A DNA stretch of 64,000 nucleotides from Planctomycetota bacterium (GTDB lineage Bacteria > Planctomycetota > JAJSAM01 > JAJVHW01): contig JAJVHW010000006.1 of NCBI GenBank assembly GCA_022072415.1, positions 4,958 through 68,957 of the forward strand. The letters are read 5' to 3'. This document shows positions 15,843 through 56,470 of the stretch, one piece after another; position 1 is the stretch's first letter; the number at the start of each line of letters is the position of its first letter. A program made the position numbers and the translations under genes. Under the pieces are notes generated by a model. It searched no databases. It had not been told where the DNA came from and saw only the letters and a list, made by a program, of their open reading frames with translations.

Positions 15843-15904
15843 GAGCGTCCCACTTGGCAACTCTTGACCGTACCCCGGCGCGACTGGCCCGGGTGAGTAT
15901 GACG

Positions 15905-16347: not shown

Positions 16348-16404
16348 GCATGCCAGCTCTCGAGTGTGACTCATGAAGTGTGATGCATGAAGATAGCTCG
16401 CTTG

Positions 16405-16880: not shown

Positions 16881-17063
16881 ACCTCCGACGCCGGAGGTGA
16901 GCGTCAGTCGCGGGCGTCGAGTTGCGGTCAGCCCGGCGCGTCACGGGCGGAAGTGAGGAACGCGCGATGCCCGGCACGGCCCGGCTCGGCCGGCGGGTAC
17001 CTGGCACCGAGTGCATCACCGAGCGGTGGGTTTGTACCTGGCTCCGCATGACATGGCTCCGTG

Positions 17064-17684: not shown

Positions 17685-17744
17685 CAGCGCTCACCTCGCA
17701 TGAGTGCCCGCAACATGCGCACATTATGCCTCACAGGAAACACT

Positions 17745-26032: not shown

Positions 26033-28696
26033 GCCGGGAGCTCCTCGTCGTCGTCGGACCCGGCGTCCGCATCCCCGGACGAGTCGCCGCCTTCGGACTC
26101 CGCCTTCTTCCGCTCCCCCATCTGCCGGTCCCACATCTCCTTGAACCGGCCGCCCTCGCGGTCCATCAGGAGCGACGGCGGGCCCTGCTCGACGATGGCG
26201 CCCTGGTCGAGCACGACCACGTGGTCGGCGTCGCGAATCGTGGAGAGTCGGTGCGCGACGACGATGACGGTGCGGCCGTGCATCAGCTTCGCGAGCGCGG
26301 CCTGCACCTGCGACTCGGCGTGGCTGTCGAGGGCGCTCGTCGCCTCGTCGAGGATCAGCACCGGCGCGTCCTTCAGGATCGCGCGGGCGATGGTCACGCG
26401 CTGGCGCTGCCCGCCGGAGAGCGACGTGCCGCGCTCGCCCGCCATCTTCCCGTAGCCGCCCTCCATGCGGGCGATCTCGTCGTGGACGAACGCGTCGCGC
26501 GCGGCCTGCTCGACCTGCTCGCGCGTGGCGCCGGGGCAGCCGTAGCGGATGTTCTCCTCGATCGACGCGTTGAAGAGGAAGGCGTCCTGCGTCACGATCG
26601 CCACGTTTGCAAGGAGGCTCTCCTTCGTGACGCTCCGCGCGTCGCGCCCGTCGAAGAGCACGGCTCCCTCCGTCGGGTCGTAGAACCGCGCGACCAGGTC
26701 GCAGATCGTCGTCTTCCCCGCGCCGGTCGGGCCCACGAGCGCGACGACCTTCCCCGCCGGGACCACGAGGTCGATCCCGCGCAGGATGTCCTTCTTCCGG
26801 TAGGCGAAGCGCACGCCGCGGAGCTCGATGCCGCGCGAGAGCGGGCCGCGGGGCATGCGGTCCGCGCCGTCGGGGAGCGTGTCCGGCTCGTCGAAGATCT
26901 CGAAGACGCGCTCGGTGCCCGGGACCGCCTCGATCAGCTTGTTGATGACGGAGGTGATCTCCTTCGACTGCTGGTAGCAGGTCTGGACGATCAGCGTGAA
27001 CGCGAAGAGGTCGCCCACCGAGACGCGCCCCGCGAGCACGAACTTCCCTCCGTACCAGACGAGCAGCGCGCCGCCGCCCATCTGCATCAGGTCCATCAGC
27101 GCCTTGCTCATCGCGGAGAGCCGCTGGAGCTTCCGCGCCTCGCGCCGGTAGCGGTGGACCACCTCGTCGAGGCGCTCGGTCTCGCGCGTCTCGCCGGAGA
27201 ACGCCTTCACCACCTTGATCCCGATCATCATCTGGAAGATGACGTGGCTGATCTCGGCCAGGATGAGCTGCCGCGTCTCCGCGCGCTTCTTCACCTTGCG
27301 CGCGATCCGGTAGAGCGGGAAGACGAGGAGCGGGAGCCCGAGGAGGATGAGCGCGAGGCCCCAGTTCGTGACGAAGGCGAGCAGCAGCGCGCCGGCCAGC
27401 ACGAAGGGCGCGGTGAACGCCGTCTCGAAGACCTGGTTCAGCACGTTCCGGAGCGACGCGACGTCGCGCTCGAGCCGCGCGACGAGGTCGCCGAGCTTGT
27501 GCTTCCCGTAGAAGGAGAGCGGCAGCCGGACGAGCTTCGCGCCGAGCGAGACGCGCACGTCGGCGATCATCTGCGTCGCGTAGAAGTTCTGGAGGTAGTC
27601 GCGGAGGAACCCCGTCCCCGCCATGAGCACGCCCACGCCGAGGGTCGCCCACGAGAGCCAGCGGAGGCGGTCGAGGGCGTCGGCGCCCGGGTCCACGAGC
27701 ACGTCGTCGAAGAGCTCGCTCCCGAGCTTGATCTTCAGCATCTGCGAGGCGGAGAAGAGGCCGCCCAGCACGATGACGACGAGGATCCCCCACCTGTACG
27801 GCTTCGCGAACGAGTAGACGCGGAGGAGCGACGAGATCCGGCCCTGCCGCCCTCCGACCCAGAGGAACGCCGCCACGACGCCCGTGAGCAGCGCGCCGCC
27901 GAGGAGCACGTGCCACGGCTTCGCGCGGCCGACGTACTGCGCGCCGACGCGCAGGCTGAGCCCGCCGGTGTCGCGGAGCGCCTCGCCCTCGGTCATCTCC
28001 ACGAGGACGCCGAACCGCGGGGCGTTCCGGCCTTCGCCGTACGCGGCGGAGAGCTTCGACCACGTCGCGAGCACGCGCTCCGACTTCCCTCCGCGGAACG
28101 TCGGCGGGTTCCCGTCGTCGTCCGGCTCCGCGAGGCCGCCGCGGCCCTGGAGGTGCTTCGCAAGCGCCTCGACGCCCTTCGACTCGTGGTCCTTGTCGAA
28201 GCGGTGGCGATGGCGCTCCTGCACGGCCTTCGGGTCGCCCTGCATGCGGAAGAGGACGCGGCCCGTGTCGTCGGCGACGGCCAGGTGCTCGTAGTTCCCC
28301 GACGACGCGCGCCCGCCCACCGGCGGACCGACGGCGGCGACCGCCTGCGCGCGCGCCGCGAGCGTCTCGTAGCGGATCTTCGCGGAGCGCCCGTTCTCGG
28401 AGATCGCGAGGTTCCGCGGCAGGAACTCGACGGTCAGCTCCGTCTCCGTGCCGCCGCCCCACCGGTCGATCGGCGGCGGCGGGGCCGCCGACATGTCGCC
28501 CGCGGCGAGCGCGGCGCGGGCCGACGCCACGGTCGAGGCGATCTCCCCGTCGAACGCCTTCCGCGCCGCGTCGATCCGCGCGAACGCCGCGCGGCGCGCG
28601 ACCGCCGACGCCCGGGAGTCGTTCACCGCGGTCGCGACCGCCGCCACGAGCATCGCGAACGCGAGCACGCACAGCCACGCCTGGATGCGCCTCATC
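26029..28696 (-). CDS. ABC exporter (fused permease/ATPase, MsbA-like) with an extra 280 aa N-terminal periplasmic domain
   Basis: Walker A GPTGAGKTT, the ABC signature LSGGQRQR, Walker B ILILDEATSALD and six TM helices are all present. An N-terminal signal-anchor plus a soluble domain precedes the transmembrane domain. Confidence 0.85.
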
Positions 28697-29816
28697 GCGG
28701 CGGCTCCGGCCGGCTTCCGAGGAGTTCGCGGTAGACCGCGAGGTTCCCCCCGACCATCGCGTCGATCGTGAACTTCCGCTCGACGTGCCGCCGCCCCTCG
28801 TCGGCGAGGCGGGCCGCGAGCGCGCGGTCCGCGAGCAGGCGCAGCACCGCCGCGGCGAGCGCGGCTGGGTCGCGCACGGGCACGGTGAGTCCGGTCTGTC
28901 CGTCCACGATCACTTCGGGGATTCCTCCCGCCGCCGAGCCGACACAGGGCCGCCGGAGCGCCAGCGCATCGAGCAGGCTCGTGCAGAGGCCCTCCAGCAC
29001 GCTGCACATCACGAAGACGTCGCAGCCGGCGAGGAGCGAGGGTACGTCGGTGCGGAACCCCGTGAAGACGATTCGGGACGCCACGCCGAGCGCCTCGGCC
29101 TCGGCGCGCACCTTCGGCAGGCACTCGCCCTCGCCCACGAGGACGATCCGCGCCTCGGGGTGGGCGGCCAGGATCGCCGGCGCCGCGCGCACGAGGAACT
29201 CCTGCGCCTTGTGCCAGCCGAACGCCGCCACGTCGAGGATCACGGGCGCGCCGCGCGGCATCCCGAACTCGGCCGCGTAGTCGTGCGGCGCGACGCCGTC
29301 GAAGCGCGCGAGGTCGATCCCCGAGTGGACGACGCGGATCCGCTCCGGCGGGATCCCGTCCTTCACCATCTGCGCGCGGATGCCCTCGCTGATCGCCACG
29401 TAGCGGTCCACGCCGAAGCGGTACTTGAACCACGAGAGCCGGAGCGCGTTCCGGTAGATCGTGAAGTCCACGCGGCGGGAGACGACGGTCTTCCCGATGC
29501 CGGCCGCCTTCGCCGCGAGCACGCCCAGCGTGTGGGCATGGCTCGTGTGCATGTGGATCACGTCGGGGCGGAACGAACGGAAGACGCGGCGGAGGCGGAG
29601 CACGCCGGCCGGGTCGGCCTCGCCCCGCGTCCGGACCTCGGCGACGTCGAGCCCCTTCGCGCGGCAGCGCTCGACGTACGGCATCCCCGGCTGCCCGACG
29701 CAGAGGTTCGTCACGCCGCGGCGTGCGAGTCCCTCGGCCAGGTAGAGCGCCTGCTGCTCGCCCCCGCGCCAGCCCTTCTCCGTGTCGATGTGGAGGACGC
29801 GGAGGGGGGCCGTCAC
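28692..29816 (-). CDS. Glycosyltransferase family 4
   Basis: A GTG start gives VTAPLRVLHID. The EX7E-like region CSVLEGLCTSLLDALALRRPCVGSAAGGIPEVI is present. It forms an ATGA overlap with the ABC exporter gene. Confidence 0.8.
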   Translation of the reverse strand: MTAPLRVLHIDTEKGWRGGEQQALYLAEGLARRGVTNLCVGQPGMPYVERCRAKGLDVAEVRTRGEADPAGVLRLRRVFRSFRPDVIHMHTSHAHTLGVLAAKAAGIGKTVVSRRVDFTIYRNALRLSWFKYRFGVDRYVAISEGIRAQMVKDGIPPERIRVVHSGIDLARFDGVAPHDYAAEFGMPRGAPVILDVAAFGWHKAQEFLVRAAPAILAAHPEARIVLVGEGECLPKVRAEAEALGVASRIVFTGFRTDVPSLLAGCDVFVMCSVLEGLCTSLLDALALRRPCVGSAAGGIPEVIVDGQTGLTVPVRDPAALAAAVLRLLADRALAARLADEGRRHVERKFTIDAMVGGNLAVYRELLGSRPEPPR

Positions 29817-30949
29817 GCCGGCACCCCCGCCCCGGCGCGCGCGGCGTCGCGGTAGGCCTCGACGGTGCGGCGCGCCGTCTCCTTCCAGTCGAACTGCGCG
29901 GCGCGCGCGTGGCCGCGTCCGATCCACGCCTGCCGTTCGCCGCCGTCGACGAGCCGGAGCGCCGCCGCGGCGAGTTCCTCCTCCGAGTCGGGGTGCACGA
30001 GCACCGCGGCGCCGCCGCAGGTCCCCTCCGTGGCGGCCGCGCGGGCCGCGACGACCGGAGTCCCGCACGCCATCGCCTCGAGCACGGGGAGCCCGAAACC
30101 CTCGCCCTTCCCGGTGAAGCAGAACGCGACAGCCCCGGCGTAGAGCGCGGGGAGCTCGTCGTCGCCGACGTATCCCAGACGCTTCACGCGCGACGCCACG
30201 GGGAGCCCCTCCGCCGCGGCGAGCACGTCCTGCCCCCCCGTCTGCACCGGCCCCGCGAGCACCAGGTCGAGGTCGAGCCCGGGGCGCCGCGCGTGGATCG
30301 CGCCGAACGCGCGGACGAGAGGCATCAGGTTCTTCCGGGCGGAGATCTGCCCCACGAAGAGCAGGTACGGCGACCGGAGCCCGTTCGCCTCGCGGACTCT
30401 CGCCACCGCCTCCGGCGTCTGCGGACGGAACGCCGCGCCGAGCCCGAGCGGCACGACGCGCGTGCGCGGCGCGGCCTCCGGGAACCGCCGGAGGAACGCG
30501 TCCCGCGTGTAGTCGGAGATGCAGAGGATCACGGCCGCGCGGCGCGCCACGTCGGCGAGCGCCCGCTCCTTCGTGCGGCGGAACTTCTCGTCGGCGATCC
30601 CCGGGAGCTCGAGGGCGGAGAGGTCGTGGACGGTGGACACGCAGGGGACCCGGCGGAACTTCGGGATGCGGAGGTCGGGCCCGTGGATCACGTCGAGGCC
30701 CCGCGGGCGGATCGGGATCGGACCGTCCTGGAACCAGCGCATGCGGAACCGCGCGTCCTCCGGCACGACCACGTGGGCCCGCCGCCCGAATCGGGAGATC
30801 CGGTAGAGGAGGTCGGCCCGGTCGTCCTCGCCGAGGACGGCCGGGAGCGCGTCCACGAGCGACGCGCAGTAGCGCGCGACCCCCGTGCGCTCGGCCTTCG
30901 CCACGCACGAGCAGTCGATGCCGATCCGCATCGGGCCGATTGTCCGCAA
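29813..30949 (-). CDS. Glycosyltransferase family 4
   Basis: MRIGIDCS at the N-terminus and GEGFGLPVLEAMACGTPVV in the catalytic region. It forms a GTGA overlap with the downstream GT4. Confidence 0.8.
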   Translation of the reverse strand: MRTIGPMRIGIDCSCVAKAERTGVARYCASLVDALPAVLGEDDRADLLYRISRFGRRAHVVVPEDARFRMRWFQDGPIPIRPRGLDVIHGPDLRIPKFRRVPCVSTVHDLSALELPGIADEKFRRTKERALADVARRAAVILCISDYTRDAFLRRFPEAAPRTRVVPLGLGAAFRPQTPEAVARVREANGLRSPYLLFVGQISARKNLMPLVRAFGAIHARRPGLDLDLVLAGPVQTGGQDVLAAAEGLPVASRVKRLGYVGDDELPALYAGAVAFCFTGKGEGFGLPVLEAMACGTPVVAARAAATEGTCGGAAVLVHPDSEEELAAAALRLVDGGERQAWIGRGHARAAQFDWKETARRTVEAYRDAARAGAGVPA

Positions 30950-31629
30950 CGGACCCCGAAACCGCGCCTTTGAACCCGACGCGAGTAGGATCGGCCGCTC
31001 TGGGCGACCCCGTGGTTCCGTCGGCAGAGGACGTCGAGCGCGCCACCGTCGCGACGCTCGGGAAGCAGGGCGCGTTCCGGCCCACGGTGAGGCTCGTCGA
31101 GGCGGGCGGGGAGCGGCTCGTCGCCAAGGACTACCGCGCGTGCACGGCGCTCTACCGCTGGACGGTGGGCGCGTGGAACCTCGCGCGGGAGGAGTCGGCG
31201 CTCCGGCGGCTCGACGGGATCGACGGCATCCCGCGGTTCCGGGGGCGCGCGGGGCGGTGGATCCTCCTCATGGACTGGATCCGCGGCCGCGACCTCGGGA
31301 AGGTGCGCCGGTTCCGCCAGACGCCGGAGTTCTACGACCGTCTGATGGCCGTCGTGGCCGAGATGCACGCCCGCGGAGTCGTCCACCTGGACCTCCGTCA
31401 GCGCCGGAACATCCTCTTCCGCCCCGACGGCGCCCGGCCGGCGGTGCTCGACTTTGGCTCCGCTCTCTGTCTCCGTCCGGGGACACTCATGCATCGCTTC
31501 CTTTCGCGGATCGACCGCTCGGGAGTCCTCAAGTACAAGCGGCGGGCGCAGCCCGACGCGCTGTCCCCCGAGGAGGCACGGGCGTTGCGATCCGTGGAGA
31601 GGCGAAGGAAGTGGTGGCCGTTCAGTTGA
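30940..31629 (+). CDS. Kdo/lipopolysaccharide-kinase family protein (protein-kinase-like fold)
   Basis: VVHLDLRQRRNILF...VLDFGSA is an HxD/DFG-like catalytic core. The start is uncertain because it overlaps the divergent GT4 5' end. Confidence 0.6.
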   Translation: MSATDPETAPLNPTRVGSAALGDPVVPSAEDVERATVATLGKQGAFRPTVRLVEAGGERLVAKDYRACTALYRWTVGAWNLAREESALRRLDGIDGIPRFRGRAGRWILLMDWIRGRDLGKVRRFRQTPEFYDRLMAVVAEMHARGVVHLDLRQRRNILFRPDGARPAVLDFGSALCLRPGTLMHRFLSRIDRSGVLKYKRRAQPDALSPEEARALRSVERRRKWWPFS

Positions 31630-31693
31630 CTCCGCACGGAAGACCTGCGGGACGGCCGCCGCGACGTGATCCGCGTTCCGAGGAGGAACCCCG

Positions 31694-32953
31694 ATGCTGA
31701 CGCAGTCTCTCCCCCGCCGCGCGCCGCTCTGGCGCCGCGCCGCAGCGTACCTCGCCGTGTTCGCGGCCACCGTGCTCGGCGCCGGCCGGGCCCTGGCCGG
31801 CGACGCCGTGAAACTCCAGTTCGAGTTCATCGACGACCGCACGCAGATCAACGCCGCCGAGTCGATCGACGTGCAGATCGTCGGGATCGACGCGACCGGC
31901 GCGCGCGTCGGGTTCAAGGACCTCGAGGTGTCGGCCACGGGCGGCACGTTCACGGTCGTCCGCCAGCCCTTCTCCTGCCGCTACACGGCGCCCGCCGAGG
32001 GCACCGACCTCGCCGCGTACCGGCTCCGCGCGTGGCTGAAGGCCCGCCCGGAGGTGAGCGGCGAGGCGACGATCACCGTCATCCCGCCCCCCGCCTACAA
32101 GCGCCTCGCGATGACCGGACCGGGCACGACGCCCGCCGGGGCGTTCGTGGACCTCGACCTCCTCGGCGAGAACGCCGCGGGCCAGATGGTCGCCGCCGAC
32201 CCGGCCACCGTCAGCGTGAAGGTCGCCTCCGGCCCCGGCACGATCACGCTGGTCAAGCCCGGGCGCTACAGGCTCGCGACCGAGGTGAAGGACACCGGCA
32301 CGTCGCGCGTCGTCGCGTCGCTGGTGCGCCACCCGTCGATCCAGTCCACCGTGGACGTGGTCGTGACCGGCGCGGCCACGCCGCAGCCCCAGCCCCAGCC
32401 GCAGCCCCTCCCGGTTCCTCCGCCGACCGGCGGCTCGGGATCCTCCGGCGGCGGCACGCCCCCGGCCCCGCCCGCCGGGGGCGGCGCAGGCGGCGGCACG
32501 AAGCCCGTCGACCCGCCGAAGCCGGTGGACAAGAACGACGTCGTCTGGCCGAGCGGCAACATCCGCATCGGCGCGTGGCGCACCATGGCCGCGGGCGACG
32601 CCGACTGGAGCGACTCAGAGAAGTCGATGCCGAAGCCTGCCGGCGAGTTCGTCGCGCGGAAGGACAAGCAGAAGCTCCGCATCGTGATCGAGCGGAAGGA
32701 CACGATCAAGGTCGAGCTCGAGGAGTGGATCGGCGACAAGAAGGGCGCGGACGTGAAGCGCCTCGACCCGACCAAGGACGGCCGCTTCCAGCTCGAGCGG
32801 AACAAGAAGGACCAGTACGTCATCCACTTCGAGGCGGCTCCGCCGGACAACGGGAAGCCCCTGAACCTGGCGATCCTCCTGACCTTCGCGGACAACAAGA
32901 TCGCCCGCGAGGAGATCGTCCTGCGCCGCGACGCGCCGGAGCCGAAGAAGTAG
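31694..32953 (+). CDS. Secreted hypothetical protein with a (PQ)n linker
   Basis: An AGGAGGA RBS precedes a signal peptide MLTQSLPRRAPLWRRAAAYLAVFAATVLGAGRALA. There is a PQPQPQPQPLPVPPPTGGSGSSGGG linker. Confidence 0.65.
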   Translation: MLTQSLPRRAPLWRRAAAYLAVFAATVLGAGRALAGDAVKLQFEFIDDRTQINAAESIDVQIVGIDATGARVGFKDLEVSATGGTFTVVRQPFSCRYTAPAEGTDLAAYRLRAWLKARPEVSGEATITVIPPPAYKRLAMTGPGTTPAGAFVDLDLLGENAAGQMVAADPATVSVKVASGPGTITLVKPGRYRLATEVKDTGTSRVVASLVRHPSIQSTVDVVVTGAATPQPQPQPQPLPVPPPTGGSGSSGGGTPPAPPAGGGAGGGTKPVDPPKPVDKNDVVWPSGNIRIGAWRTMAAGDADWSDSEKSMPKPAGEFVARKDKQKLRIVIERKDTIKVELEEWIGDKKGADVKRLDPTKDGRFQLERNKKDQYVIHFEAAPPDNGKPLNLAILLTFADNKIAREEIVLRRDAPEPKK

Positions 32954-33149
32954 ACCCCGCTCCCGTCCGCACCCGGCGGCCCGCGACCCCTCCCGGGGTC
33001 CGGGCCGCCTCGATTCCGAGGGGCAGGACCCGCCCGCGCCGGGGGTTGGCACGAACCGTGCAACCGGAACTTGGGTGGGGACGTCCCACTTCCGATAGAG
33101 TGTCCGTCCTCCGGAACTCGGACAGACCCCTCACAAGGAGGCCTGAGAG

Positions 33150-34100
33150 ATGCGTTCGATGATGGTTGCGGCAGCCACGGCGCTGCTGACGTTCGCCGCC
33201 GGCGCCGCGCTGGCCGGCAAGGGCGACAAGGCGGAACCGAAGATCACGGTCCGCTTCGCCAAGTCCTGGGACACGGCGGTCGCCGAGGCGAAGGAGCTGA
33301 ACCTGCCGCTGATCGTCCACAGCCACGGCTTCTATTGAAACCCCTGCTGGGGGATGCACGGTGCCGTGCTCCAGAACGAAGACTACATCAGCTTCTCCAA
33401 CGAGAACACTGTCGAGGTGCTCGCCCTCGGGCGGCTCGACGAGGGCATCCAGAAGAACGACCCCCGCGCCGCCGAGTACGACGCGAAGGACGCCGACGGG
33501 AAGCCCGTGAAGTACATGGTGAGCTGGCCCGGACTCACGAAGGAGGAGATCTTCGCGCTCAACTCCTCGAAGGCCGGCTCCTACAACAACACCGGCGGCA
33601 TCCCGTTCACGTGCGTGGTCAACCCGCACGACGAGAAGGAGATGCAGCGGTGGCAGGGCGGCCAGTCGGCGAAGACGATCATGGAGGCCGTCGCCACCCA
33701 CAAGAAGACGATCAACGCCCAGTTCGGCCCGAGCCTCTCGCGCGGGACGATCAAGAAGATCGAGGAGGAGGGGAAGAAGATCGCCGCCTCCCTCGAGAAG
33801 GGCAACCTCGCGGCCGCGGCCGCCGACCTGAAGAAGCTCCAGAAGTCGGTGTCCGGGAAGGACGGCAAGGTCCCCGAGGGCCTGAAGCCGCGCCTCGGCA
33901 AGGTCGAGGACGCGCTCGTCGAGGCGATCGGCAAGGTGCTCGACGAGGCCGAGGGCCTCATCGGCACGGGTGACGCCGCGGGGGCGAAGAAGTCCCTCGC
34001 GAAGGTCGCCGCCGCCGCCAAGGGCACGTCCGCGGAAGCCCGCGTGAAGGAGCTCGAGGCGAAGATCAAGGAGATGGCTCCCGCCGAGCCCGCGAAGTAG
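33150..34100 (+). CDS. Candidate selenoprotein: secreted thioredoxin-fold protein with an in-frame TGA (33336-33338) at the first position of a U-N-P-C motif, plus a Lys/Ala/Glu-rich tail
   Basis: ORFs 33150..33338 and 33354..34100 are in the same frame, separated only by the TGA. The context is LPLIVHSHGFY-TGA-NPCWGM, and a cis-Pro-like GGIPFTCVV follows downstream. A SECIS-like hairpin at 33352..33372 has a bulged U and a GUGC apical loop. There is an AGGAGG RBS and a signal peptide. Confidence 0.45.
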
Positions 34101-34123
34101 TCCGTCGCTCCGTCGCGTACTCA

Positions 34124-34160
34124 GGGGCCCGTCTGCCGCGCTTCGCGGACGACGGGCCCC
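34124..34160. terminator. GC-rich hairpin between convergent genes (bidirectional terminator candidate)
   Basis: A 10 bp perfect stem (GGGGCCCGTC, 17 nt loop, GACGGGCCCC) lies between the stops at 34100 and 34179. Confidence 0.4.
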
Positions 34161-34178
34161 GTTCGATTCCGGGCCGGG

Positions 34179-36668
34179 TCAGTCCTTCCCGCCGAACTTC
34201 TGCCCGGGCTCGCCGGAGATGCGAACGTTCGCGCCGGAGGGCACCGTCATCGCGGGGATCGTTCCGCCGAAGAGGATGCGCACGGCGCCGTTGCCCGACT
34301 CGGCGAGCGGCGATCCCGCGATCACGTCGCGGATGCCGTCGCCGTTCACGTCGATCGGCGGGAAGCCGAAGATCCCGAACTGTTCGCCCGCCGCGCCGAA
34401 GAAGCGCCGCCCCGTCGCCCACGACTGGCTCGCGGGGGAGTCGAACACGACGACGACGCCCGCATCGGCGTCGGCGCCGTTGTCGGCTCCGGGCGCGGTG
34501 GCGAGGACATCGGCGAGCCCGTCGCCCGTCACGTCGGCCGCGCCGATCGCGGCGCCGAGGTGGTCCCCCGCCGCCACGCCGAAGAACATGAAGTCCGCCG
34601 TCGAGGCTCCGGCCGACGCGAGGCCGTCCTCGCCCCGGAACCCGTAGATCCGCCCCGCCCCCGCGGCCGAGCCGCCCTGGTTGAACTCGACCGCGCCCAC
34701 CAGCAGGTCGGCGCGGCCGCCTCCCGTGACGTCGCCCACGGCGAGCGGGATCCCGAACCCCGAATCGGTCCCTTCGCCGGTGAGGATCACGTCGGCGGTG
34801 GACGCCGGGCGCGTCCCCGCGACGATGGGCCCCGCGAACACGTAGCACCTGCCGGTGGCGCCCGCCGTGTCGATCTGGTCCGCGCCGACGACCAGGTCCC
34901 TCGCGCCGCTCCCGATCAGGTCCCCCGACGCGATCGCCGCGCCGAAGAGGTCCGACGCGGCTTCGCCCGTCAGGATCACGTCGGCCGCGTCCGCGGTGGT
35001 GCTCGCGGTCAGCGGCCCGAAGAAGATCAGCACGGCGCCGTTCCCGGTCCCGGTCCGGTTGTTGGACTCGTCGCCCACGATCAGGTCGTCCACGCCGTCG
35101 CCGGTCACGTCGGCGATGTGCAACTGGTTCCCGAAGTTCGGGTCGGCCGCCGATCCCGTGATCTCGATGTCCGCGTCGCCCGACGCGCCGAACCCGGACT
35201 TCCCGAACAGGATGCCCACCGTCGCCGGCTGGCGCGCCGACACGGCGAGGTCTGCGACCCCGTCCCCGTCGAGGTCGCCGGACGCGACGAAGCGGCCCAG
35301 TTCGTCGCCCGGGGTCCCGTTCGTGAACTTCGGGCTCGCGGACGACGCCGACGTCGTCGCGGCGATCGTCCCGCCGCGGAACACGCTCACGCTGCCGCGG
35401 TCGCCGTTCTCCCCGGGCGAGCCGACGACGAGGTCGGCGAGCCCGTCTGCGTCGAGGTCCCAGTCCACGACGCCCCGCGGGCGGAACGCCTGGTAGGTGC
35501 TGAAGTGCGCGACCGGGAACGAGACGGTGCGGTTCACCGTGTCGAACACGAACGCCGCGGGCGGCGCGAGGACGACCTCGGTCACCTTGCCCTTCGCGTC
35601 GCGCACGAAGATCCGCAGGTCGTCGGTCGTCGTTCCGGGAGGGAGCGGGGCGTACGGGATCGTGACCGTGGCAGGCACGGCGAAGGACGTGCCCTCGGGC
35701 CCGAAGAACACCGCGGGTCCGCCGCCCGCGACGTCTTCCGCCTTCGGAGCCACGGCGGCGCCCGTGCCCACGATGATCCCGGTCGGAAGGGCGAGCGCGC
35801 CGCCGGGCACGTCCACCGACGCGCCGTCCACCGGCGACAGCGCGTCGTCCACCGCGACCATCCCGCCCTCCGCGCCGACGACGGCGCCGGTCGCGAGCGA
35901 CCCGTCGCCGGGCCCGAGCTTCCGGTCGGTGAGATCCACCCGCTTCGAGGTCTCCCGGGGCAGGGTCGCGGTCGCCGTCCCGGTGAACGGACCGCCCGCG
36001 CCCGCGTCGGCGACGAAGATGCGCCACGTCCCGGTGGAAGAGATCGTCCCGCGGCCGGAGTGCGACGTCGCGCCCTCGCGCGGCGGCGCGAAGATCGCGC
36101 CGCATCCGCCGTCGGAGCAGATCCTGTCGAGTCGCGGCAGCGATGCGCTCCCCTGCGCGCGCTTCACGACGAACGACACCTGCGTCCCCGCGGCGAACTC
36201 GAACGGGACCTCGACCTCGCCGCCGCTCGTGTCGCCTCCGAACGGCGTCTTCTTCGGGACGGACCACGACGCGGTGACGTCGTAGTCGCCGACGACGCCG
36301 TCGCCGGACACGACGATGCGGTACACGCCCGTCTCGGGCACCAAGCCGCTCCACGCCGCGCCGGTCGCGCCCTTCGGCGTCGTCGGCGTCGCGTCGGTGA
36401 GGTCCCCCGCCGTCGGCGCGACGATCTCGAACCCCGCCCGCGGTGCGGCCGGCGCGCCCTTCGCCTTCCGCCCCTTCACCGACACCTTGAGCGTCGCCCC
36501 TGCCGGGATCTCGATCCGGTACGTCTCGAACTCGGCCGCGGGGTTCAGCGTTCCGCGCGCCTTGAACCCGTTCCGCACGGCCACGTCCACGTCGGCGCGC
36601 GCAGACGCTGCGGCGACGAGGAGCGCAAGGTGCGACACGACGAGGACGGCGGAACGCGATCGAGTCAT
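34179..36668 (-). CDS. Secreted FG-GAP repeat protein (integrin-alpha-like repeats) with an N-terminal beta-rich domain
   Basis: A signal peptide MTRSRSAVLVVSHLALLVAAASARA precedes multiple DxDGDGxxDLxVG repeats. Confidence 0.8.
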   Translation of the reverse strand: MTRSRSAVLVVSHLALLVAAASARADVDVAVRNGFKARGTLNPAAEFETYRIEIPAGATLKVSVKGRKAKGAPAAPRAGFEIVAPTAGDLTDATPTTPKGATGAAWSGLVPETGVYRIVVSGDGVVGDYDVTASWSVPKKTPFGGDTSGGEVEVPFEFAAGTQVSFVVKRAQGSASLPRLDRICSDGGCGAIFAPPREGATSHSGRGTISSTGTWRIFVADAGAGGPFTGTATATLPRETSKRVDLTDRKLGPGDGSLATGAVVGAEGGMVAVDDALSPVDGASVDVPGGALALPTGIIVGTGAAVAPKAEDVAGGGPAVFFGPEGTSFAVPATVTIPYAPLPPGTTTDDLRIFVRDAKGKVTEVVLAPPAAFVFDTVNRTVSFPVAHFSTYQAFRPRGVVDWDLDADGLADLVVGSPGENGDRGSVSVFRGGTIAATTSASSASPKFTNGTPGDELGRFVASGDLDGDGVADLAVSARQPATVGILFGKSGFGASGDADIEITGSAADPNFGNQLHIADVTGDGVDDLIVGDESNNRTGTGNGAVLIFFGPLTASTTADAADVILTGEAASDLFGAAIASGDLIGSGARDLVVGADQIDTAGATGRCYVFAGPIVAGTRPASTADVILTGEGTDSGFGIPLAVGDVTGGGRADLLVGAVEFNQGGSAAGAGRIYGFRGEDGLASAGASTADFMFFGVAAGDHLGAAIGAADVTGDGLADVLATAPGADNGADADAGVVVVFDSPASQSWATGRRFFGAAGEQFGIFGFPPIDVNGDGIRDVIAGSPLAESGNGAVRILFGGTIPAMTVPSGANVRISGEPGQKFGGKD

Positions 36669-36710
36669 CGGAGACCTCCCGGCTGCGCCGGAGTCTATCC
36701 GACCGGCGCT

Positions 36711-37863
36711 CTACGCAGTCCCGGCGGCCCGCTTTCCGAGGATCACCTCGTAGAACGCCTCGATCCGCCGCGCCTGGAGCGCGAGTCCGTAGCGGCGGTG
36801 CGCGATGTCGTGGGCCGACGCGGAGAGCCGCTCGCGGAAGGAGGCGTCCTCGGCGAGGCGGATCAGCGCGGACGCGAGTTCGTCGGGGGAATCGCCGACG
36901 AGGATCCCGTTCACGCCGTCCTCGATCAGGTCCACGAGGTGCCCGCGGCGCGCGGCGACGACGGGCACGCCCATCGCGAGCGCCTCGCGCGCGGCGCGGC
37001 ACGAGCCGTCGCTCCCGGGGACGAGGTACACCTTCGCGTGCATGCAGCGGAGGGTCGCCACGTACTCCGACCCGCGACGGTAGCCCGTGAAGATCGCCTT
37101 GCCCTGGAGGTCCTTCCGCGCGGCCGGCTTCACCGCGACCTCGTCCATCCACGTCCCGCGTCCGACGAGCAGGATCTTCATGCGCGGCACGCGCCGCGCG
37201 ACCTGCGTCATCGCCTCGAAGAACACCTCGAACCGGCGGTGACGCTGCATGCGCGCGACGATCCCGACGACGAAGTCCTCCGGCTCGATCCCGTAGTCCT
37301 TCCGGAGGTCCGGGAGCCCCTTCGCCCGGGGGTTGAAGCGGCGGAGGTCCACCGCGCCGTCCACCCAGATCGCGCGCTCCTCCTCCAGGCCGAACCGCTG
37401 GACCACGGAGTTCCGCACGCGCTCGCTGATGGCGACGACGCCCGCGCATCCGCCGCGGAGGAGGGTCTTCGTGTCCTTCGTGACCGGCGGCGGATCGCCG
37501 TCGTAGAGCGAACGGACGATCGGGATCCCGAGCCCCTCGGCCGCGCCGAGCGCGATGCGGTGGTCGTTCGGGAGGTGGCAGTGGATGACGTCGGGGCGGT
37601 GCTTCCTCAGCCACGCGCGGAGCGCGCGGCGGTCGAGGGCGTCCCAGATGGGGTTCCGGTGCTTGCCGAGGCGGAGCACGAGCCGCGGCTCGAGCCCGCG
37701 GCGGCGGGCCTCGTCGGCCACGTCGTTCGGGAGCGGCTCCACCTCGCGCCCGCAGAGGAACTCCACCGTGTGCCCGCGCTGGCGGAGCTGCGCCGCGAGG
37801 TTCACGGCCGGCTCCGCCGGACCGGTCCACTTCCAGTTCGCGAAGAGATGCAGGATGCGCAAG
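36711..37863 (-). CDS. Glycosyltransferase family 4 (probable TTG start)
   Basis: RILHLFANWKW at the N-terminus and EALAMGVPVVAARRGHLVDLIEDGVNG in the catalytic region. Confidence 0.75.
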
Positions 37864-37873
37864 ACGTGGATCC

Positions 37874-39607
37874 TCACTCGATCGGGTCCATGCGGACGAC
37901 GATCTTCCGCCGGCACTCCGCCGCGACGCGGCGGAACCACTCCTTCCACCCCGCAGCCACCTCGGGACGCCCCGCGGCGTACGCGCGGAAGAACCGCAGG
38001 CGGTCCGCGAGGGAGATGCACACGGGCACGCTCGCCGAGAGCTGCGCCAGGTTCTTCACCCGCCGGCGGAACGGCACGCGGCGGTCGAACTCCACGCGGT
38101 CGTAGTCGGCCAGCACGAGCCGGGGCCCCGCCGCCGCTCCGCGGCGGAGGAACAGGTTCACCGCCTTCAGGTCGCCGTGGTAGACGCCCGCGTCGTGGAG
38201 CCGGCGGACGAGCGACGCAGCGGCCTCGACGAGCGCGCGCTTCTCGGCCCGGCGCGCGGCGTCGGGGGCCGACGCGTGGCGCGCGAGCACCACGAGATCG
38301 GACCGCGTGCCGTCCCCGAGGTCCTCCATCACGAGGAACGCGTCCCCGAGCGCCGCGCCGCGCCCGCGGACGAGGAGCGCCAGCGGCTCCGCCGCGTCGA
38401 AGCCGCGGACGAGGAGCCCGTTCCCGGCGACCCATGCGGCCACGGCCCGCGGAGTCCGCACGAGGTTCTTCGCCCGGTCCATCGCGCCGCCCCGCCGGTA
38501 CTGCTTCACGATCACGCTGCGCGGCGCGCCGCCCTCCTCCGGCGGCGGGAGGCTCTGGCGCGTGAGCGCGGACCGGCTCCCGTCCTTCAGCACGTTCCTC
38601 GCCTTCGCCGCCACGTCGCGGAGGTGCGGCGCGACGAGCCCCGCGAGCGCGCGGGCGTCGAGGGTCCGGAGGTGATGGACGCGCATCCCCTCCGCGGCCG
38701 TCACGTCGAACTTCGACGACCGGGCGAGGCTCCGGTCGGTGCGGCTCCGCACGCGCCGGAGCTCCATCCTCGCGAGCTCCGGCTCGAGCGCCGCGGAGAG
38801 CGCGCCTTCCGCGAGCAGGCGTTCCACGCGCGTGCCCGACGGTCCGCCCGCGGTCGCGTACGTCTCGCAGATCCTGCGCCGCTCCTCCTCCGTGCTGCAC
38901 GTGAGCATCGAGTGGAGGAGCTTCACGAGGTCGAACCATCGCGCCGACTCCGACGGGCGCGCAGGGCGCGTCACCGAGTGGAGGTCGATCACGTGGAGCG
39001 ACGGCGCGTCCGGCGGCCCGTTCACGAGGAGGTTCCCGCCGTGGAAGTCGTTGTGGACGAACCCCGCGTCGTGCATCCGGCGGACGAGGCGCGCGAGCGC
39101 GTCGTAGAGCGCGCCGCGGAGCGCCGCGCGGCGGTCCGCCTCGGCGCGGTCGCCTTCGGCGGCGGCGCCCCCGAGCATGTGCTTCTCGACGAACGCGTTG
39201 AGATGGAGCGCGTCGGGGATCTCGCGCGTGACCAGCGCCGCGTCGCGGAGCACGCCTCCTGCGCGCCGCTCTCCGAAGGCGAGGGGCACCGACGTCGGAA
39301 TGCCCGCCGCGTCGAGCGCGCGGCCGACGTCCCACTCGGTCTTCGCGCGGGAGTCCTTCACCGCGTACTTCACCACGTCCTGCGCGCCGGACACGCGGTA
39401 GCGCTTCACGATCACGCGGCCGCCGCCGGGCATCGGCACGCGGAACACCGCGCGGACGAGGTTCCGCTTGAGCACCGCGACGCCGGGCGCGCCGTCGATC
39501 TCGCCGAGCCGCCCGGCGATCCCGGCGCGCACCGCCTCCGCGGTCGCCGCCTCCGCGGTCCATCGGAGCCCCGAGGCGTCGAACGTCACCGTCGCCTCAG
39601 CGGGCAT
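37874..39607 (-). CDS. Protein with two tandem Kdo/LPS-kinase-like domains
   Basis: Domain 1 contains VIVKRYR...FVHNDFHGGNLLV. Domain 2 contains VIVKQYRRGG...VYHGDLKAVNLFL. Confidence 0.7.
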   Translation of the reverse strand: MPAEATVTFDASGLRWTAEAATAEAVRAGIAGRLGEIDGAPGVAVLKRNLVRAVFRVPMPGGGRVIVKRYRVSGAQDVVKYAVKDSRAKTEWDVGRALDAAGIPTSVPLAFGERRAGGVLRDAALVTREIPDALHLNAFVEKHMLGGAAAEGDRAEADRRAALRGALYDALARLVRRMHDAGFVHNDFHGGNLLVNGPPDAPSLHVIDLHSVTRPARPSESARWFDLVKLLHSMLTCSTEEERRRICETYATAGGPSGTRVERLLAEGALSAALEPELARMELRRVRSRTDRSLARSSKFDVTAAEGMRVHHLRTLDARALAGLVAPHLRDVAAKARNVLKDGSRSALTRQSLPPPEEGGAPRSVIVKQYRRGGAMDRAKNLVRTPRAVAAWVAGNGLLVRGFDAAEPLALLVRGRGAALGDAFLVMEDLGDGTRSDLVVLARHASAPDAARRAEKRALVEAAASLVRRLHDAGVYHGDLKAVNLFLRRGAAAGPRLVLADYDRVEFDRRVPFRRRVKNLAQLSASVPVCISLADRLRFFRAYAAGRPEVAAGWKEWFRRVAAECRRKIVVRMDPIE

Positions 39608-40379
39608 CCGGCCTCCAGAGGTCGCGTCCGAGCTCCCGGAGCTTCGCGTACTTGAGGAAGACGTAGTAGGCGCCCGACACGGCCGCGCAGAAGCCCGCCG
39701 CGCCGTCGAGGAAGCCCGCGCGGAGCACGTACATCCGCACGAACTTCCCGAACGGGCGGAGCGTCAGGTCGAGGAGCCCCGCGCGCCGTCCGGCCGCATG
39801 CTTCTCGCGCGCCGCGATCGACGTGAACGAGTCGATCGTGCGGAGATGGTCGGAGAGCGAGCGGTAGCTCAGGTGGAGGAGATCCCCGCCGATCCGCCGC
39901 ACCGGGCCGCCCCCGGGGTCCGTCACCACGTGATCGTGCGGGTTCGTCCCGCCCCACCGCGCGCGGCTCCTCCGGAAGAGCCGGAGCTTCCGGTCCGGAT
40001 ACCAGCCGCCGTGCCGGATCCACCGCCCGAGGTAGAACGTGCGCCGCGCGCACTCGAAGCCGGCGGCGTCGCCCGGCGACCCGAGCGCGGCGAGGATCGA
40101 CGCGCGGAGCTCCGGCGAGACGCGCTCGTCGGCGTCGAGGCAGAGCACCCAGTCGTGCGTCGCCTCCGAGAGCGCGAAGTTCTTCTGCTGCACGTGCCCC
40201 GGCCAGTCGCGCTCGATCACACGCGCCCCGGCCGCCGCGGCGAGTTCGCGGGTGCGGTCCGTCGAATGGCTGTCCACCACGACCCACTCGTCCGCGAAGT
40301 CCGCCGAACTGAGGCAGTCGGAGATGTTCGCCTCCTCGTTCATCGCGACGATGCACACGGAGAGTTTCGGACGCGTCAC
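39597..40379 (-). CDS. Glycosyltransferase family 2
   Basis: LSVCIVAMNEE...WVLCLDADE (DxD motif). The GTG start overlaps the upstream kinase stop (GTGA). Confidence 0.75.
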   Translation of the reverse strand: MTRPKLSVCIVAMNEEANISDCLSSADFADEWVVVDSHSTDRTRELAAAAGARVIERDWPGHVQQKNFALSEATHDWVLCLDADERVSPELRASILAALGSPGDAAGFECARRTFYLGRWIRHGGWYPDRKLRLFRRSRARWGGTNPHDHVVTDPGGGPVRRIGGDLLHLSYRSLSDHLRTIDSFTSIAAREKHAAGRRAGLLDLTLRPFGKFVRMYVLRAGFLDGAAGFCAAVSGAYYVFLKYAKLRELGRDLWRPDAR

Positions 40380-41209
40380 AGCGCGGCCCCCCGGACGGGG
40401 CGGACGGCGTCGTGCCGCGCGATGTGCGCCGCGAGCCGCGAGGCGAGGGCGCGGAGGTCGTCGCGCGACGGCCAGTCGGCGCCGGCGTATGCGCGGAGGA
40501 CCCGCATGCGGTCCGCCCGGGTCACCGGGTGCCCCGCCGCGGCGACCTTCGCGGCGTAGCGGTCGAACCGGAACAGTCCGGCGAGCCGCCTCTCGCGCGG
40601 GAGCGGACGCGCGCGCTTCACGCGGTCGAGGTCGAGGACCCGGACCGCGGCACCGTCGGCGAGGAGGTTCTTCAGGTGGAGGTCGGGGTGGTCGAAGCCC
40701 GCGTCGTGAAGGGCGCGGATCGACCGGCCGGAGGCGGCGAGGATCGCGCGGCGCGCGGCCGGCGCGAGGCCCTCGGCGAGCGCCTGCTCGACGTCGCGGG
40801 CACCGGGGACCTCCTCGAGCAGGAGCCATCCCGCGCGGAACAGCGCGTCGGCACGCCGCGACACGACGCCCAGCGCGCGGCAGACGGGGACTCCCGCGGC
40901 CTCCGCGTCCACGTGCGCGCGAAGCTCGCCGAGGAACCGCCCGTCGCCGACGTGGCGCGCCCCGGTCACGCGGCCGAGCACCCCGCCGTGCAGGTACGGG
41001 CGCACGAACACGCGCCCGGCTCCGGGAACCTCCACCGAGAAGGGCCGCCCGCGCCCGCGGAACTCGCGGACCGCCCGCAGGCGGGCCGACGCGGGGTCGG
41101 CGAGCGACGCGGCCAGCGCGTCGGCGACGTCCTCGCGGAGCACCATGTCGGCGCCCCCCGAGGACCGCCGCACGAAACCGCGCGGAAGCTCAGCCGCCGT
41201 CGGGCCCAT
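40376..41209 (-). CDS. Kdo/LPS-kinase family protein (KdkA/WaaP-like)
   Basis: FDHPDLHLKNLLADG...VLDLDRV in the catalytic region. Confidence 0.65.
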   Translation of the reverse strand: MGPTAAELPRGFVRRSSGGADMVLREDVADALAASLADPASARLRAVREFRGRGRPFSVEVPGAGRVFVRPYLHGGVLGRVTGARHVGDGRFLGELRAHVDAEAAGVPVCRALGVVSRRADALFRAGWLLLEEVPGARDVEQALAEGLAPAARRAILAASGRSIRALHDAGFDHPDLHLKNLLADGAAVRVLDLDRVKRARPLPRERRLAGLFRFDRYAAKVAAAGHPVTRADRMRVLRAYAGADWPSRDDLRALASRLAAHIARHDAVRPVRGAAL

Positions 41210-41301
41210 GCGCGGGATTGTCCCCGCCGTCCGCCCCGCCCGGCAGGGTTTCGGGGCCCCGCGGCGCAGGGGAGACTTTGCACGGCAAAGGCCGAGGGGC
41301 G

Positions 41302-41922
41302 ATGCTCGTGCCCGTGACCCGCCGCGAACCCCGCCCGACCGCCTCCGCGAAGCACGCCGCGGACGACCTGCGGTTCATCCGCGAGACCCTCGAGCGCTCC
41401 GGGCGCTTCACGGCGATCCCCGGCGCCGGAGTGGCGGCGCTCGGCGGGATCGCGTTCACGGCCGCGGCGCTCGCGCAGCAGGCGCGCGACGCGCGCACCT
41501 GGCTCTGGATCTGGGCAGCGGCCGCGGGCGCGGGGATCGCCGTCGGCCTCGCCGCGGTGGCCGTGAAGGCCCGCCGCTCGGGGATGCCGGCCTTCTCCGG
41601 CCCGGCGCGCAGGTTCCTCGCGGCACTGCTTCCCGCGGTCGCCGCGGGCGCGCTGGTGACGGTGCCCCTCGTCTCCCGCGGGCAGACGGCGCTCGTCCCC
41701 GCGCTCTGGATGCTGTTCTACGGCGTCGGCCTCTTCGCGGCGGCGCTCGGCGCCACGCGGATCGTCGCGGTGGCGGGCCTCTGGATCGCCTCGTGCGGCG
41801 CGGCGGCGCTGGTCCTTCCCGCGCGGATGGGGAACGAACTCCTCGCCGCCGGGCTCGGCGCGGGGCACGTCGCGGCGGGCGTCGCGGTCCTCCTCCTCGA
41901 CCGGAGGCGCGATGACCGCTGA
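41302..41922 (+). CDS. Hypothetical four-TM membrane protein
   Basis: Hydrophobic helices. It overlaps the downstream regulator gene start. Confidence 0.5.
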   Translation: MLVPVTRREPRPTASAKHAADDLRFIRETLERSGRFTAIPGAGVAALGGIAFTAAALAQQARDARTWLWIWAAAAGAGIAVGLAAVAVKARRSGMPAFSGPARRFLAALLPAVAAGALVTVPLVSRGQTALVPALWMLFYGVGLFAAALGATRIVAVAGLWIASCGAAALVLPARMGNELLAAGLGAGHVAAGVAVLLLDRRRDDR

Positions 41923-42259
41923 ACGCACCCGGAAGGTGCGCGCGTCGGCTGCGCTGTTCCGGGACGGCGCGGGGCTCGACCCGCTCGTCCACGAGCGCGT
42001 GCGTCTCGGCATCCTCGCGGCCCTCGCCGCCGAGTCCCCCGCGGCGTTCACGGACCTCCGCGACGCGCTCGGCCTGACCGACGGGAACCTCGCCGTGCAC
42101 GGCCGGCGCCTCGAGGAGGCGGGCTACGTCGTCCAGGCGAAGCGGTTCCGCGGCGAAGCGCGGAAGACCGAGTTCTCGATCACGCCGAAGGGCCGCGCCG
42201 CGCTCGCCTCGTACCTCGACCGGATGGACGCGATCCTCCGGAACGCCCGCAACGCCTGA
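41912..42259 (+). CDS. Winged-helix transcriptional regulator (ArsR/PadR-like)
   Basis: ERVRLGILAALAAESPAAFTDLRDALGLTDGNLAVHGRRLEEAGYV. Confidence 0.55.
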   Translation: MTAERTRKVRASAALFRDGAGLDPLVHERVRLGILAALAAESPAAFTDLRDALGLTDGNLAVHGRRLEEAGYVVQAKRFRGEARKTEFSITPKGRAALASYLDRMDAILRNARNA

Positions 42260-46530: not shown

Positions 46531-47532
46531 TCAGAAGTCCCAGGTCCACCCGATCGAGAGCGACCCGAACCGCTGGCCGCCGTCCTGCCCCTCGAACTCG
46601 TCGGTGCGGTGGACGTGCGTGTAGGCGATGCGGAACTTCCCGAACTCCAGCGCGATCCCCGCGCGGAGCTCCGCGACCAGGGGCTCCTTGTCCACGTCGT
46701 GCCCGTCGTGGAACAGCGGCCCGTCGAGGAACGCGTTCCGGCCGACGGCGCGCGCGTCGGCGCCGCCGAACACGTACCAGCGGGGCGACGAGCCGCGGTC
46801 GCCGTCGTCGGGGACCTCGATCGCCGTGGTGTGGATCGTGTTGACGCCGAAGTCGCGCGGCAGCCGCCAGCCGAGCCGCGCCTGGAGGCCCCCCACGGCG
46901 TTCGCGTGGATCGTCCCGAGGCTCGCCCCGACCTTGCCGAGCACGTCCCAGTCCATCTGCGAGAACGCCTCGCCCGCTGCGAGACGGCGGCGGTACTCGT
47001 AGGTGCCGACGATTCCGGCCTCGCTCGCCGCCTGGTGGCGCCACCCGCGCGGGCGGTCGGACCCGGTCCAGTCGTGGACGAGCTTCTGCGCGTCCTCGGC
47101 GAGCGACGCGGCGCCGGTGACGCCCACGTCCACCTCGAACGTGCTCGCGTAGTCTCCGACCGGGTGCTCGCCCGCGCGCCGCCCCGCATTCGCCACGAGC
47201 AGGCCGGCGTAGAGCCAGCCCGCGTACGGGCGGTCGTCCTCGATCCTCCGGCGGAGCTTGATCTTCTCGGGCGTGTAGACCTCCTGCGCGACGACCGCCC
47301 CGATCTGCGTCGTGGAGCCGCGCTCGTAGAGCGGCGTGGCCGACGCGGCGGCGCGCATCCACTCCGGCGTCGCGTCGGCGTCGAACATCGACGAGACGCG
47401 GAACCCGCTCGTGTAGTAGCGGTCGCTGCGGTTGCCTGCGCCGAAGATGTCGTTCTCGAAGTGGATGCTCGTGGTGCCGCAGGCCGCGAGCAGGAGCGGA
47501 GCGGCGGCGGCGGCGTTGCGCGTGGTTCGCAT
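46531..47532 (-). CDS. Outer-membrane beta-barrel protein, lipid A deacylase LpxR-like (DUF2219)
   Basis: Lipoprotein-like signal [19 protein letters not shown] beta-strand-rich sequence ends in GWTWDF. Confidence 0.5.
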
Positions 47533-55605: not shown

Positions 55606-55641
55606 CGCGCGCGGCGCCGGATCGGCGAGAGTCGGCGCTCC

Positions 55642-56466: not shown

Positions 56467-56470
56467 CGGC

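Follow-up and report, generated by a model that had tools for sequence, protein, structure and literature searches.

We analysed a 64,000-nucleotide stretch of contig JAJVHW010000006.1 from an uncultured planctomycete (hereafter, the window), which carries a run of genes for kinases of the Kdo/WaaP family and for glycosyltransferases. One protein encoded in this run, here called the tandem kinase, comprises two kinase domains in series. Most of the 2-kb bins of the window have a G+C content of 70-77%, and because this value is so high, raw lists of open reading frames (ORFs) are full of spurious frames. Genes were called by plotting G+C content by codon position (GC3, the third position) and by using a gene caller based on GC3 and GC2. 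Five minus-strand genes in an unbroken run were identified identically in the GC3 plot, by the gene caller and in independent calls on the public contig (locus L078).

The first gene of the run, kinA (40376-41209), encodes a KdkA-like kinase of 277 amino acids (Pfam PF06293, 66.2 bits, E = 3.6e-18). It is followed by a gene for a family 2 glycosyltransferase (GT2; 39597-40379, GTG start, 260 amino acids; PF00535, E = 6.8e-19) and then by the gene for the tandem kinase (37874-39607, 577 amino acids), which matches PF06293 in two stretches with 132 bits (E = 2.6e-38). Its N-terminal WaaP-like domain (residues 1-300) is encoded by positions 38708-39607, and its C-terminal WaaP-like domain (residues 301-577, plus the stop codon) by positions 37874-38707. 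Both kinase proteins exceed the PF06293 gathering threshold of 21.3 bits. The fourth gene encodes a family 4 glycosyltransferase (GT4; 36711-37877, GTG start, 388 amino acids), which matches PF13692 (Glyco_trans_1_4), PF13439 (Glyco_transf_4) and PF00534 (Glycos_transf_1) with E values of approximately 1e-20. The fifth encodes a secreted FG-GAP repeat protein of 829 amino acids (34179-36668; FG-GAP E = 1.2e-29) that carries a signal peptide.

The order kinase, GT2, tandem kinase and GT4 had been proposed in an earlier interpretation made from the letters and their ORFs (hereafter, the sequence-only reading), and it is borne out by the gene calls and the Pfam matches. The two overlaps described there likewise agree with the junction sequences. 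At the junction of kinA and the GT2 gene (...CTGTGACG), the GTG start codon of the latter overlaps the stop codon of the former as GTGA, whereas the GT2 and tandem-kinase genes overlap by 11 nucleotides (ATGCCCGCTGA). A second GTGA overlap joins the stop codon of the tandem-kinase gene to the GTG start codon of the GT4 gene (GAGTGAGG). These four genes are predicted to be translationally coupled, and we infer their co-transcription from the overlaps. The FG-GAP gene begins 42 nucleotides past the GT4 gene on the same strand and has its own ribosome-binding site, GGGAGG, before the ATG at 36668. A promoter and terminator scan of positions 33900-41500, of a kind that is uninformative for this organism, returned nothing exceeding the shuffled expectation.

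The two halves of the tandem kinase are 35% identical over 210 amino acids (E = 3e-20), and each repeat unit of approximately 290-300 amino acids consists of a kinase core with an N-terminal extension formed by a beta-hairpin and a helix. Searches with hidden Markov models (HMMs) confirm that the run encodes three domains of the Kdo/WaaP family, including two in a single polypeptide. Among the NCBIfam models, RfaP is preferred over KdkA by both the N-terminal half (60.1 versus 40 bits) and the C-terminal half (61.5 versus 39 bits). An AlphaFold2 model of the protein, built on an alignment of 22 homologues, has a pLDDT of 91.5 (above 90 in the N-terminal domain) and a pTM of 0.89. Its top Foldseek match in the PDB is Pseudomonas aeruginosa WaaP (6dfl_A; E = 9.7e-13, TM score of 0.69 on the target, 25% identity), followed by PRPK/Bud32 and RIO kinases, so that the modelled fold can be assigned to the WaaP type. 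None of these PDB matches is a solved structure that spans both domains.

Like the heptose(I) kinase WaaP/RfaP (6dfl; NF011703), which is their best match both by structure and by HMM, the two halves possess a catalytic Lys, an HxD motif and a metal-binding Asp, and the N-terminal half also shares the sequence 'IDLH'. They differ from WaaP/RfaP in their tandem architecture and in scores that fall far below the cut-off. In addition, the C-terminal half lacks the Glu of helix alpha-C and carries 'DYD' in place of 'DLH'.

The 22 full-length homologues, which extend down to 30% identity, were used to evaluate the catalytic residues of each half. The beta3 Lys, the HxDxxxxN motif and the metal-binding Asp are present in both (K68/D187/N192/D208 and K368/D479/N484/D501). 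Residues K68, E91, H179, D187, H189, N192 and D208 are invariant in the N-terminal half, as are K368, H477, D479, N484 and D501 in the C-terminal half. The sole canonical residue that is absent from the C-terminal half is the alpha-C Glu (E91 in the N-terminal half), which is replaced by Ala or Ser in every homologue (A391 in the protein from the window; 'RAVAAW' versus 'RAKTEW'). The sequence-only reading had named the lack of catalytic residues in one half as an outcome that would speak against it; instead, the Lys, Asp, Asn and Asp are retained in both halves throughout the family.

The two kinase cores are also equally conserved, with mean pairwise identities of 0.456 for the N-terminal half and 0.447 for the C-terminal half. 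In neighbour-joining (NJ) trees the N-terminal halves form one clade and the C-terminal halves another; P0086, the homologue that diverges most, is an exception in both of its halves. This separation therefore indicates a single, ancient fusion or duplication event that would have predated the diversification of the family. Judging from these alignments, both halves have been under similar constraint since the fusion, and purifying selection acts on both active sites. A decaying pseudokinase half was considered and is unsupported, given invariant catalytic residues and equal conservation of the halves.

A subtler possibility is that only one domain of the 577-amino-acid protein works as a kinase, while the other, most likely the C-terminal half, serves as a nucleotide- or substrate-binding pseudo-dimer partner, a regulator or a scaffold. 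One phosphate rather than two would then be added. The replacement of the alpha-C Glu in all 22 homologues favours such an arrangement, or at least a C-terminal domain that is non-canonical, and in the protein-kinase superfamily a kinase is commonly fused to a pseudokinase. Because the pTM is 0.89, the model also implies a defined, fixed packing of the two domains, as would be expected of a structural partnership. However, a purely structural domain would be expected to lose its catalytic Asp and Asn in at least some lineages, whereas K368, H477, D479, N484 and D501 persist down to 30% identity in a core conserved as well as its N-terminal counterpart (0.447 versus 0.456). We therefore regard a single working domain as unlikely, though by no means negligible.

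The sequence-only reading had considered a tandem duplication of this fold in one polypeptide to be uncommon, and our searches do not bear this out. When 1.84 billion cluster representatives (50% identity) were searched exhaustively by phmmer with the tandem kinase, they yielded 5451 matches at E<=1e-3 and at least 328 clusters at E<=1e-30, mostly from Planctomycetota. Approximately 138 of the best 150 matches are proteins of at least 500 amino acids that are collinear over both domains, with collinear homologues measuring 520-620 amino acids; the remainder comprise short fragments together with a small number of longer proteins that have extra regions. A word-indexed search recovered 89 clusters (90% identity), mostly of full-length proteins of approximately 510-610 amino acids. 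From GTDB species genomes we recovered 77 loci, mostly in Planctomycetota, where they occur among Brocadiia/Scalindua, Pirellulales, Planctomycetales, Gemmatales and Phycisphaerae; such loci also occur in a few metagenome-assembled genomes (MAGs) labelled Myxococcota, Deltaproteobacteria or Lentisphaerae. By sequence comparison, the tandem architecture is thus a conserved hallmark of a large, widespread and uncharacterised family rather than a rarity. Current annotation of its members is inconsistent and includes 'Kdo kinase', 'InaA family', 'Bud32' and 'hypothetical'. A cultured host was sought through cluster membership, which led only to metagenome and MAG sources.

Some family members are longer, such as P0234 (829 amino acids), P0162 (854), P0205 (932), P0229 (955) and P0230 (879). 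One of the longer members has five matched stretches, and proteins with three or more kinase domains or with further fusions may exist. A different but equally tight coupling is evident in loci of Brocadiia/Scalindua, which are related to anammox bacteria (L004-L011 and L049). In these loci a gene for a GT2 of approximately 315 amino acids follows the tandem-kinase gene with a 7-nucleotide overlap.

The kinase encoded by kinA is KdkA-like rather than WaaP-like. Its best NCBIfam match is KdkA (NF002475, 64.2 bits), compared with 24 bits for RfaP. The position of the beta3 Lys is occupied by Arg (R70, in 'VFVRPYLHGG'), a substitution that might be taken as a mark of a pseudokinase. This interpretation was ruled out, as the Arg is invariant within the kinA family and typical of genuine KdkA proteins. 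In an alignment of 16 kinA homologues, R70, E95, H174, D176, N181, D193 and D195 are invariant, and R70 is likewise found in three syntenic loci. Annotated KdkA proteins of Pasteurellaceae carry 'LRHYYRGG' at this site and share an R-x-Y-x-x-G-G signature with kinA. When six of these proteins were aligned with kinA, invariant positions were R53, G75, G76, R91, E95, H174, D176, N181, D193, D195, R214 and R217, and R70 was present in 10 of the 11 sequences of the alignment of kinA with KdkA. These proteins are monophyletic in 77 of 100 NJ bootstraps. KdkA of Haemophilus and other Pasteurellaceae (NF002475) has in common with kinA the elements GRG...(L/V)R-x-Y-x-x-GG, R...E, HxDLxxxN and DxD, as well as two C-terminal Arg residues, although kinA is only approximately 20% identical to KdkA and has a C-terminal extension of approximately 35 amino acids.

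To place these genes in a wider setting, proteins of the window were compared by tblastn with the recovered loci, and precomputed gene and Pfam tables were examined for two long contigs (L080 and L081). The order kinA-GT2-tandem kinase-GT4 is conserved in five loci (L001, L002, L003, L080 and L081), and three others (L014, L016 and L017) preserve the order GT2-tandem kinase-GT4. Orthologues of the GT2, with 65-74% identity, occupy the same position in L001-L003, L080 and L081. A GT4 gene lies directly downstream of the tandem-kinase gene in L001-L003, L012, L014, L016, L017, L032, L080 and L081. Across diverse planctomycete loci, the same-strand neighbours found within 200 nucleotides of the tandem-kinase gene are mostly glycosyltransferases (of 27 such neighbours, 11 are GT2, five are GT4 and two are GT9).

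Conservation extends beyond the first GT4 gene. In L003, L080 and L081, this gene is followed by an opposite-strand gene, kinF, and then by two GT4 genes and a gene for an MsbA-like ATP-binding cassette (ABC) exporter. In L017 no kinF was detected, and the GT4 gene leads straight into another GT4 gene, the ABC exporter gene and a further GT4 gene. The corresponding genes of the window, all on the minus strand, begin with one for a GT4 of 378 amino acids (29813-30949; Pfam), the first gene of this second conserved sub-operon, with orthologues in L003, L080 and L081. Next come the genes for a GT4 of 374 amino acids (28692-29816; Pfam), whose orthologues in L003, L017, L030 and L050 are 47-56% identical, and for the exporter (26029-28695, 888 amino acids), in which ABC_membrane and ABC_tran domains span residues 306-787. 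The exporter gene is overlapped at its end by the gene for a sulfotransferase of 290 amino acids (25160-26032; Pfam Sulfotransfer_3 and Sulfotransfer_1). L080 carries a sulfotransferase gene in the same position after the exporter gene (19875-20726), and its product is 44% identical to that of the window.

Over positions 25160-41209, the gene order of the window is therefore the same as that of its relatives, apart from the inserted FG-GAP gene and a gene for a 248-amino-acid Lys-rich protein. The sequence-only reading had the operon end at the FG-GAP protein. This protein is indeed secreted, and its gene is co-directional and lies 42 nucleotides downstream, but the gene is not conserved as part of the cluster. 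No counterpart was found beside the cluster in L001-L003, L080 or L081, which rules out the FG-GAP gene as the conserved operon end and marks it as a local addition.

The exporter is not a typical representative of its class. Among the NCBIfam models, MsbA_rel and MsbA_lipidA match it best, with 438 bits (438.4 for TIGR02203). The protein has an extra N-terminal region of approximately 270 amino acids, consisting of a signal-anchor helix and a soluble segment without a Pfam match. The soluble segment is probably periplasmic, and a domain of this kind is unusual in an MsbA-type half-transporter. Protein length is maintained in relatives, at 867-907 amino acids in L080 and L081. The exporter resembles the lipid A-core flippase MsbA in being an ABC_membrane plus ABC_tran half-transporter, and it is co-clustered with core-type genes; it departs from MsbA in its score, which at 438 bits lies below the cut-offs of 602 and 780, and in the additional N-terminal segment. 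The conserved position of a sulfotransferase gene beside that of the exporter is a hint that an envelope glycolipid or glycan is sulfated.

Between the two glycosyltransferase sub-operons lies kinF (30940-31629, plus strand), which encodes a small protein-kinase-like protein of 205-229 amino acids; its start codon is ambiguous (TTG at 30940 or GTG at 31012). Orthologues with 57-66% identity occupy the same position in L003, L080 and L081. Pfam searches of kinF returned no PF06293 match and only weak, sub-threshold matches to Pkinase and APH, and its best NCBIfam match is PRK12274 with 68 bits (cut-off of 372). Its motifs include the Lys, the Glu, HLD...N and a true DFG. The four Kdo-kinase-fold domains in 10 kb counted by the sequence-only reading are accordingly revised to three Kdo-family domains plus kinF.

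The true DFG motif of kinF bears on another explanation for the cluster, wherein the kinases would have proteins as their substrates, be it the adjoining glycosyltransferases or others. The fold is protein-kinase-like, weak sub-threshold matches to Pkinase, RIO and Bud32 are found, and WaaP of P. aeruginosa reportedly exhibits tyrosine kinase activity in vitro. Nevertheless, the strongest matches by both sequence and structure are to LPS (lipopolysaccharide) sugar kinases, kinA bears a KdkA-specific signature, there is no activation-loop-like insert, and the window has no partner phosphatase or FHA genes. Action on the glycosyltransferases, which the sequence-only reading had offered as an alternative, finds no specific support, and we consider a protein-kinase function very improbable.

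The gene adjacent to kinF (31694-32953, plus strand) encodes a secreted protein of 419 amino acids with a signal peptide and a low-complexity linker, for which neither Pfam nor NCBIfam provided a family match. It is 33-34% identical to the product of the gene beside kinF in L080, L081 and L001, and kinF is paired with a gene for a secreted protein of approximately 400 amino acids in both L080 and L081. In these two contigs the pair again sits between the two glycosyltransferase sub-operons (13077-14929 in L080 and 12872-14742 in L081). An O-antigen ligase was considered for the 419-amino-acid protein and rejected, as the protein carries a signal peptide, is secreted rather than located in the membrane, and lacks family matches.

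The cluster of approximately 16 kb (25160-41209) most likely directs the assembly and export of an inner-core LPS that is phosphorylated at several sites, a reading in which we have moderate confidence. An LPS-core role is favoured because the kinases come closest to KdkA and WaaP by HMM and to WaaP by structure, and because the genes are syntenic with those for GT2, GT4, an MsbA-like exporter and, in relatives, a GT9. These same observations make phosphorylation of a core oligosaccharide at several positions, as suggested in the sequence-only reading, the function best supported by homology. According to this reading, the glycosyltransferases would extend lipid A-Kdo at the cytoplasmic side of the inner membrane, and up to three positions would be phosphorylated: the KdkA-like kinA would act on Kdo, and the two tandem-kinase domains on two positions of the core sugars. 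The two further GT4s, and possibly the sulfotransferase, would complete the product, which the co-clustered MsbA-like exporter would then flip. The analysis establishes the gene structure, the family assignments, the conservation of the catalytic residues, the fold, the synteny and how large the family is; from these we infer that LPS core is the substrate, and likewise which positions are phosphorylated, whether each domain is active and in what order the reactions proceed.

Several observations weigh against an LPS-core assignment. The equivalog cut-offs of NCBIfam are not reached by kinA (64.2 bits against 142 for KdkA), by the tandem kinase (117.9 bits for the whole protein against 170 for RfaP, NF011703) or by the exporter (cut-offs of 780 for MsbA_rel and 602 for MsbA_lipidA/TIGR02203), which also has its unusual N-terminal domain. 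WaaP groups with the tandem halves in 38 of 100 NJ bootstraps, and because this tree placement is weak, the WaaP-like assignment of the halves rests on HMM and fold scores. The absence of the alpha-C Glu from every C-terminal half makes the catalytic competence of that domain less certain. Heptosyltransferase, WaaA and heptose-pathway genes are absent within the 64-kb window, and the conserved sulfotransferase does not fit into canonical core synthesis. A literature search on tandem LPS kinases and on planctomycete WaaP or KdkA returned nothing specific, and we know of no LPS core structure from a planctomycete.

Some of these points would fit a cluster that builds and exports another envelope glycoconjugate bearing phosphate or sulfate, for example a glycolipid or a lipid-linked oligosaccharide, on whose glycan the Kdo-family kinases would act. 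The shortfall of kinases and exporter from their cut-offs, the extra region of approximately 270 amino acids in the latter, the conserved sulfotransferase and the lack of a GT9 or WaaA gene in the window can all be read in this way. However, among characterised proteins, all three Kdo-family domains are most closely related to LPS kinases, and MsbA models provide the best matches to the ABC exporter. Moreover, a GT9 heptosyltransferase gene adjoins the cluster in L080 and L081; this gene and one for a protein of approximately 800 amino acids that flank the relatives' cluster have no match within the window. A full-length homologue of the lipid A 3'-O-deacylase LpxR (46531-47532, minus strand; PF09982, E = 1.2e-87) is encoded 5 kb from the cluster, which implies that the organism makes lipid A. 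A product other than LPS is therefore improbable in our judgement, and LPS-core assembly remains the reading that we prefer.

The closest known parallel is the P. aeruginosa operon in which four genes for LPS kinases (waaP-wapP-wapQ-PA5006) are found together with waaF, waaC and wapG (PMC3147165). The P. aeruginosa core carries three to six phosphates, and core that lacks phosphorylation fails to be exported (PMC3147165). As in that operon, the planctomycete cluster has several Kdo/WaaP-family kinase genes interleaved with or adjacent to genes for core glycosyltransferases, which implies phosphorylation at multiple sites, and where export in P. aeruginosa depends on core phosphorylation, the planctomycete cluster includes an MsbA-like exporter. 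At least two LPS-kinase genes are arranged with core glycosyltransferase genes in overlapping, putatively co-transcribed frames, and this arrangement is conserved in L001-L003, L080 and L081. In contrast to the separate kinases of P. aeruginosa, however, the planctomycete WaaP-like domains are fused in one 577-amino-acid protein with approximately 25% identity to WaaP. The operon partners are GT2 and GT4 rather than GT9, and the cluster adds a KdkA-like kinase and a sulfotransferase.

The sequence-only reading had also held that a conserved canonical core-LPS locus would count against it. The locus is conserved within its clade, but it is not canonical in the enterobacterial sense. Rather than an anomaly or a new class of system, the cluster is of the multi-kinase LPS-core type with two WaaP-like kinases fused. 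What is new is that two WaaP-like domains are permanently fused, that they are associated with a KdkA-like enzyme, and that a sulfotransferase and an atypical exporter are co-clustered with them.

One extension of this reading is that the fused double kinase is a device found throughout the planctomycete phylum, that both its sites act sequentially on one acceptor, for example by adding a pair of phosphates, or a diphosphate, to the inner core, and that these modifications, together with KdkA-like phosphorylation and sulfation, license export by the atypical MsbA. We offer this idea tentatively and doubt that it holds in full. If true, it would represent a distinct, highly anionic LPS-core chemistry and an export checkpoint that is undescribed in model bacteria. 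The findings overall refine known biology and are relevant to specialists in LPS and in the planctomycete envelope. The LPS core of Planctomycetota is all but uncharted, in its composition as in its biosynthesis, and the cluster provides a concrete, conserved set of candidates for inner-core assembly. If both domains are active, the tandem kinase would be a natural fusion of two sugar-kinase sites for multi-site phosphorylation, and such a double kinase would be a useful example of how core phosphates gate LPS export, as they do in P. aeruginosa.

Upstream of kinA and divergent from it lies a plus-strand pair of genes (41278-42259) that encode a protein of 206-214 amino acids without an assigned function and an HTH_34 winged-helix regulator (41912-42259; E = 2.9e-22). 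This pair is possibly a local regulator, and it is not conserved in relatives, with a different upstream gene in L080 and L081.

Other features of the window lie farther from the cluster. The region at 12000-18300, with a G+C content of 0.64-0.67 compared with approximately 0.74, contains integrase and transposase fragments (rve, 13748-14572; phage integrase, 14672-14905; rve_3, 17784-18308) and probably represents a mobile element or island that has decayed. Three large secreted repeat proteins of the FG-GAP/ASPIC type are encoded in the window, all on the minus strand (7320-9191, 9969-12071 and the protein at 34179-36668 described above), and a gene for an extracytoplasmic function (ECF) sigma factor (12068-12715) directly precedes one gene of this type. 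Finally, a plus-strand triplet at 54475-57679 encodes a radical SAM protein, an AAA (MoxR-like) ATPase and a VWA (CoxE-like) protein, and adjoins a tyrosine-recombinase-like gene at 53181-54413.

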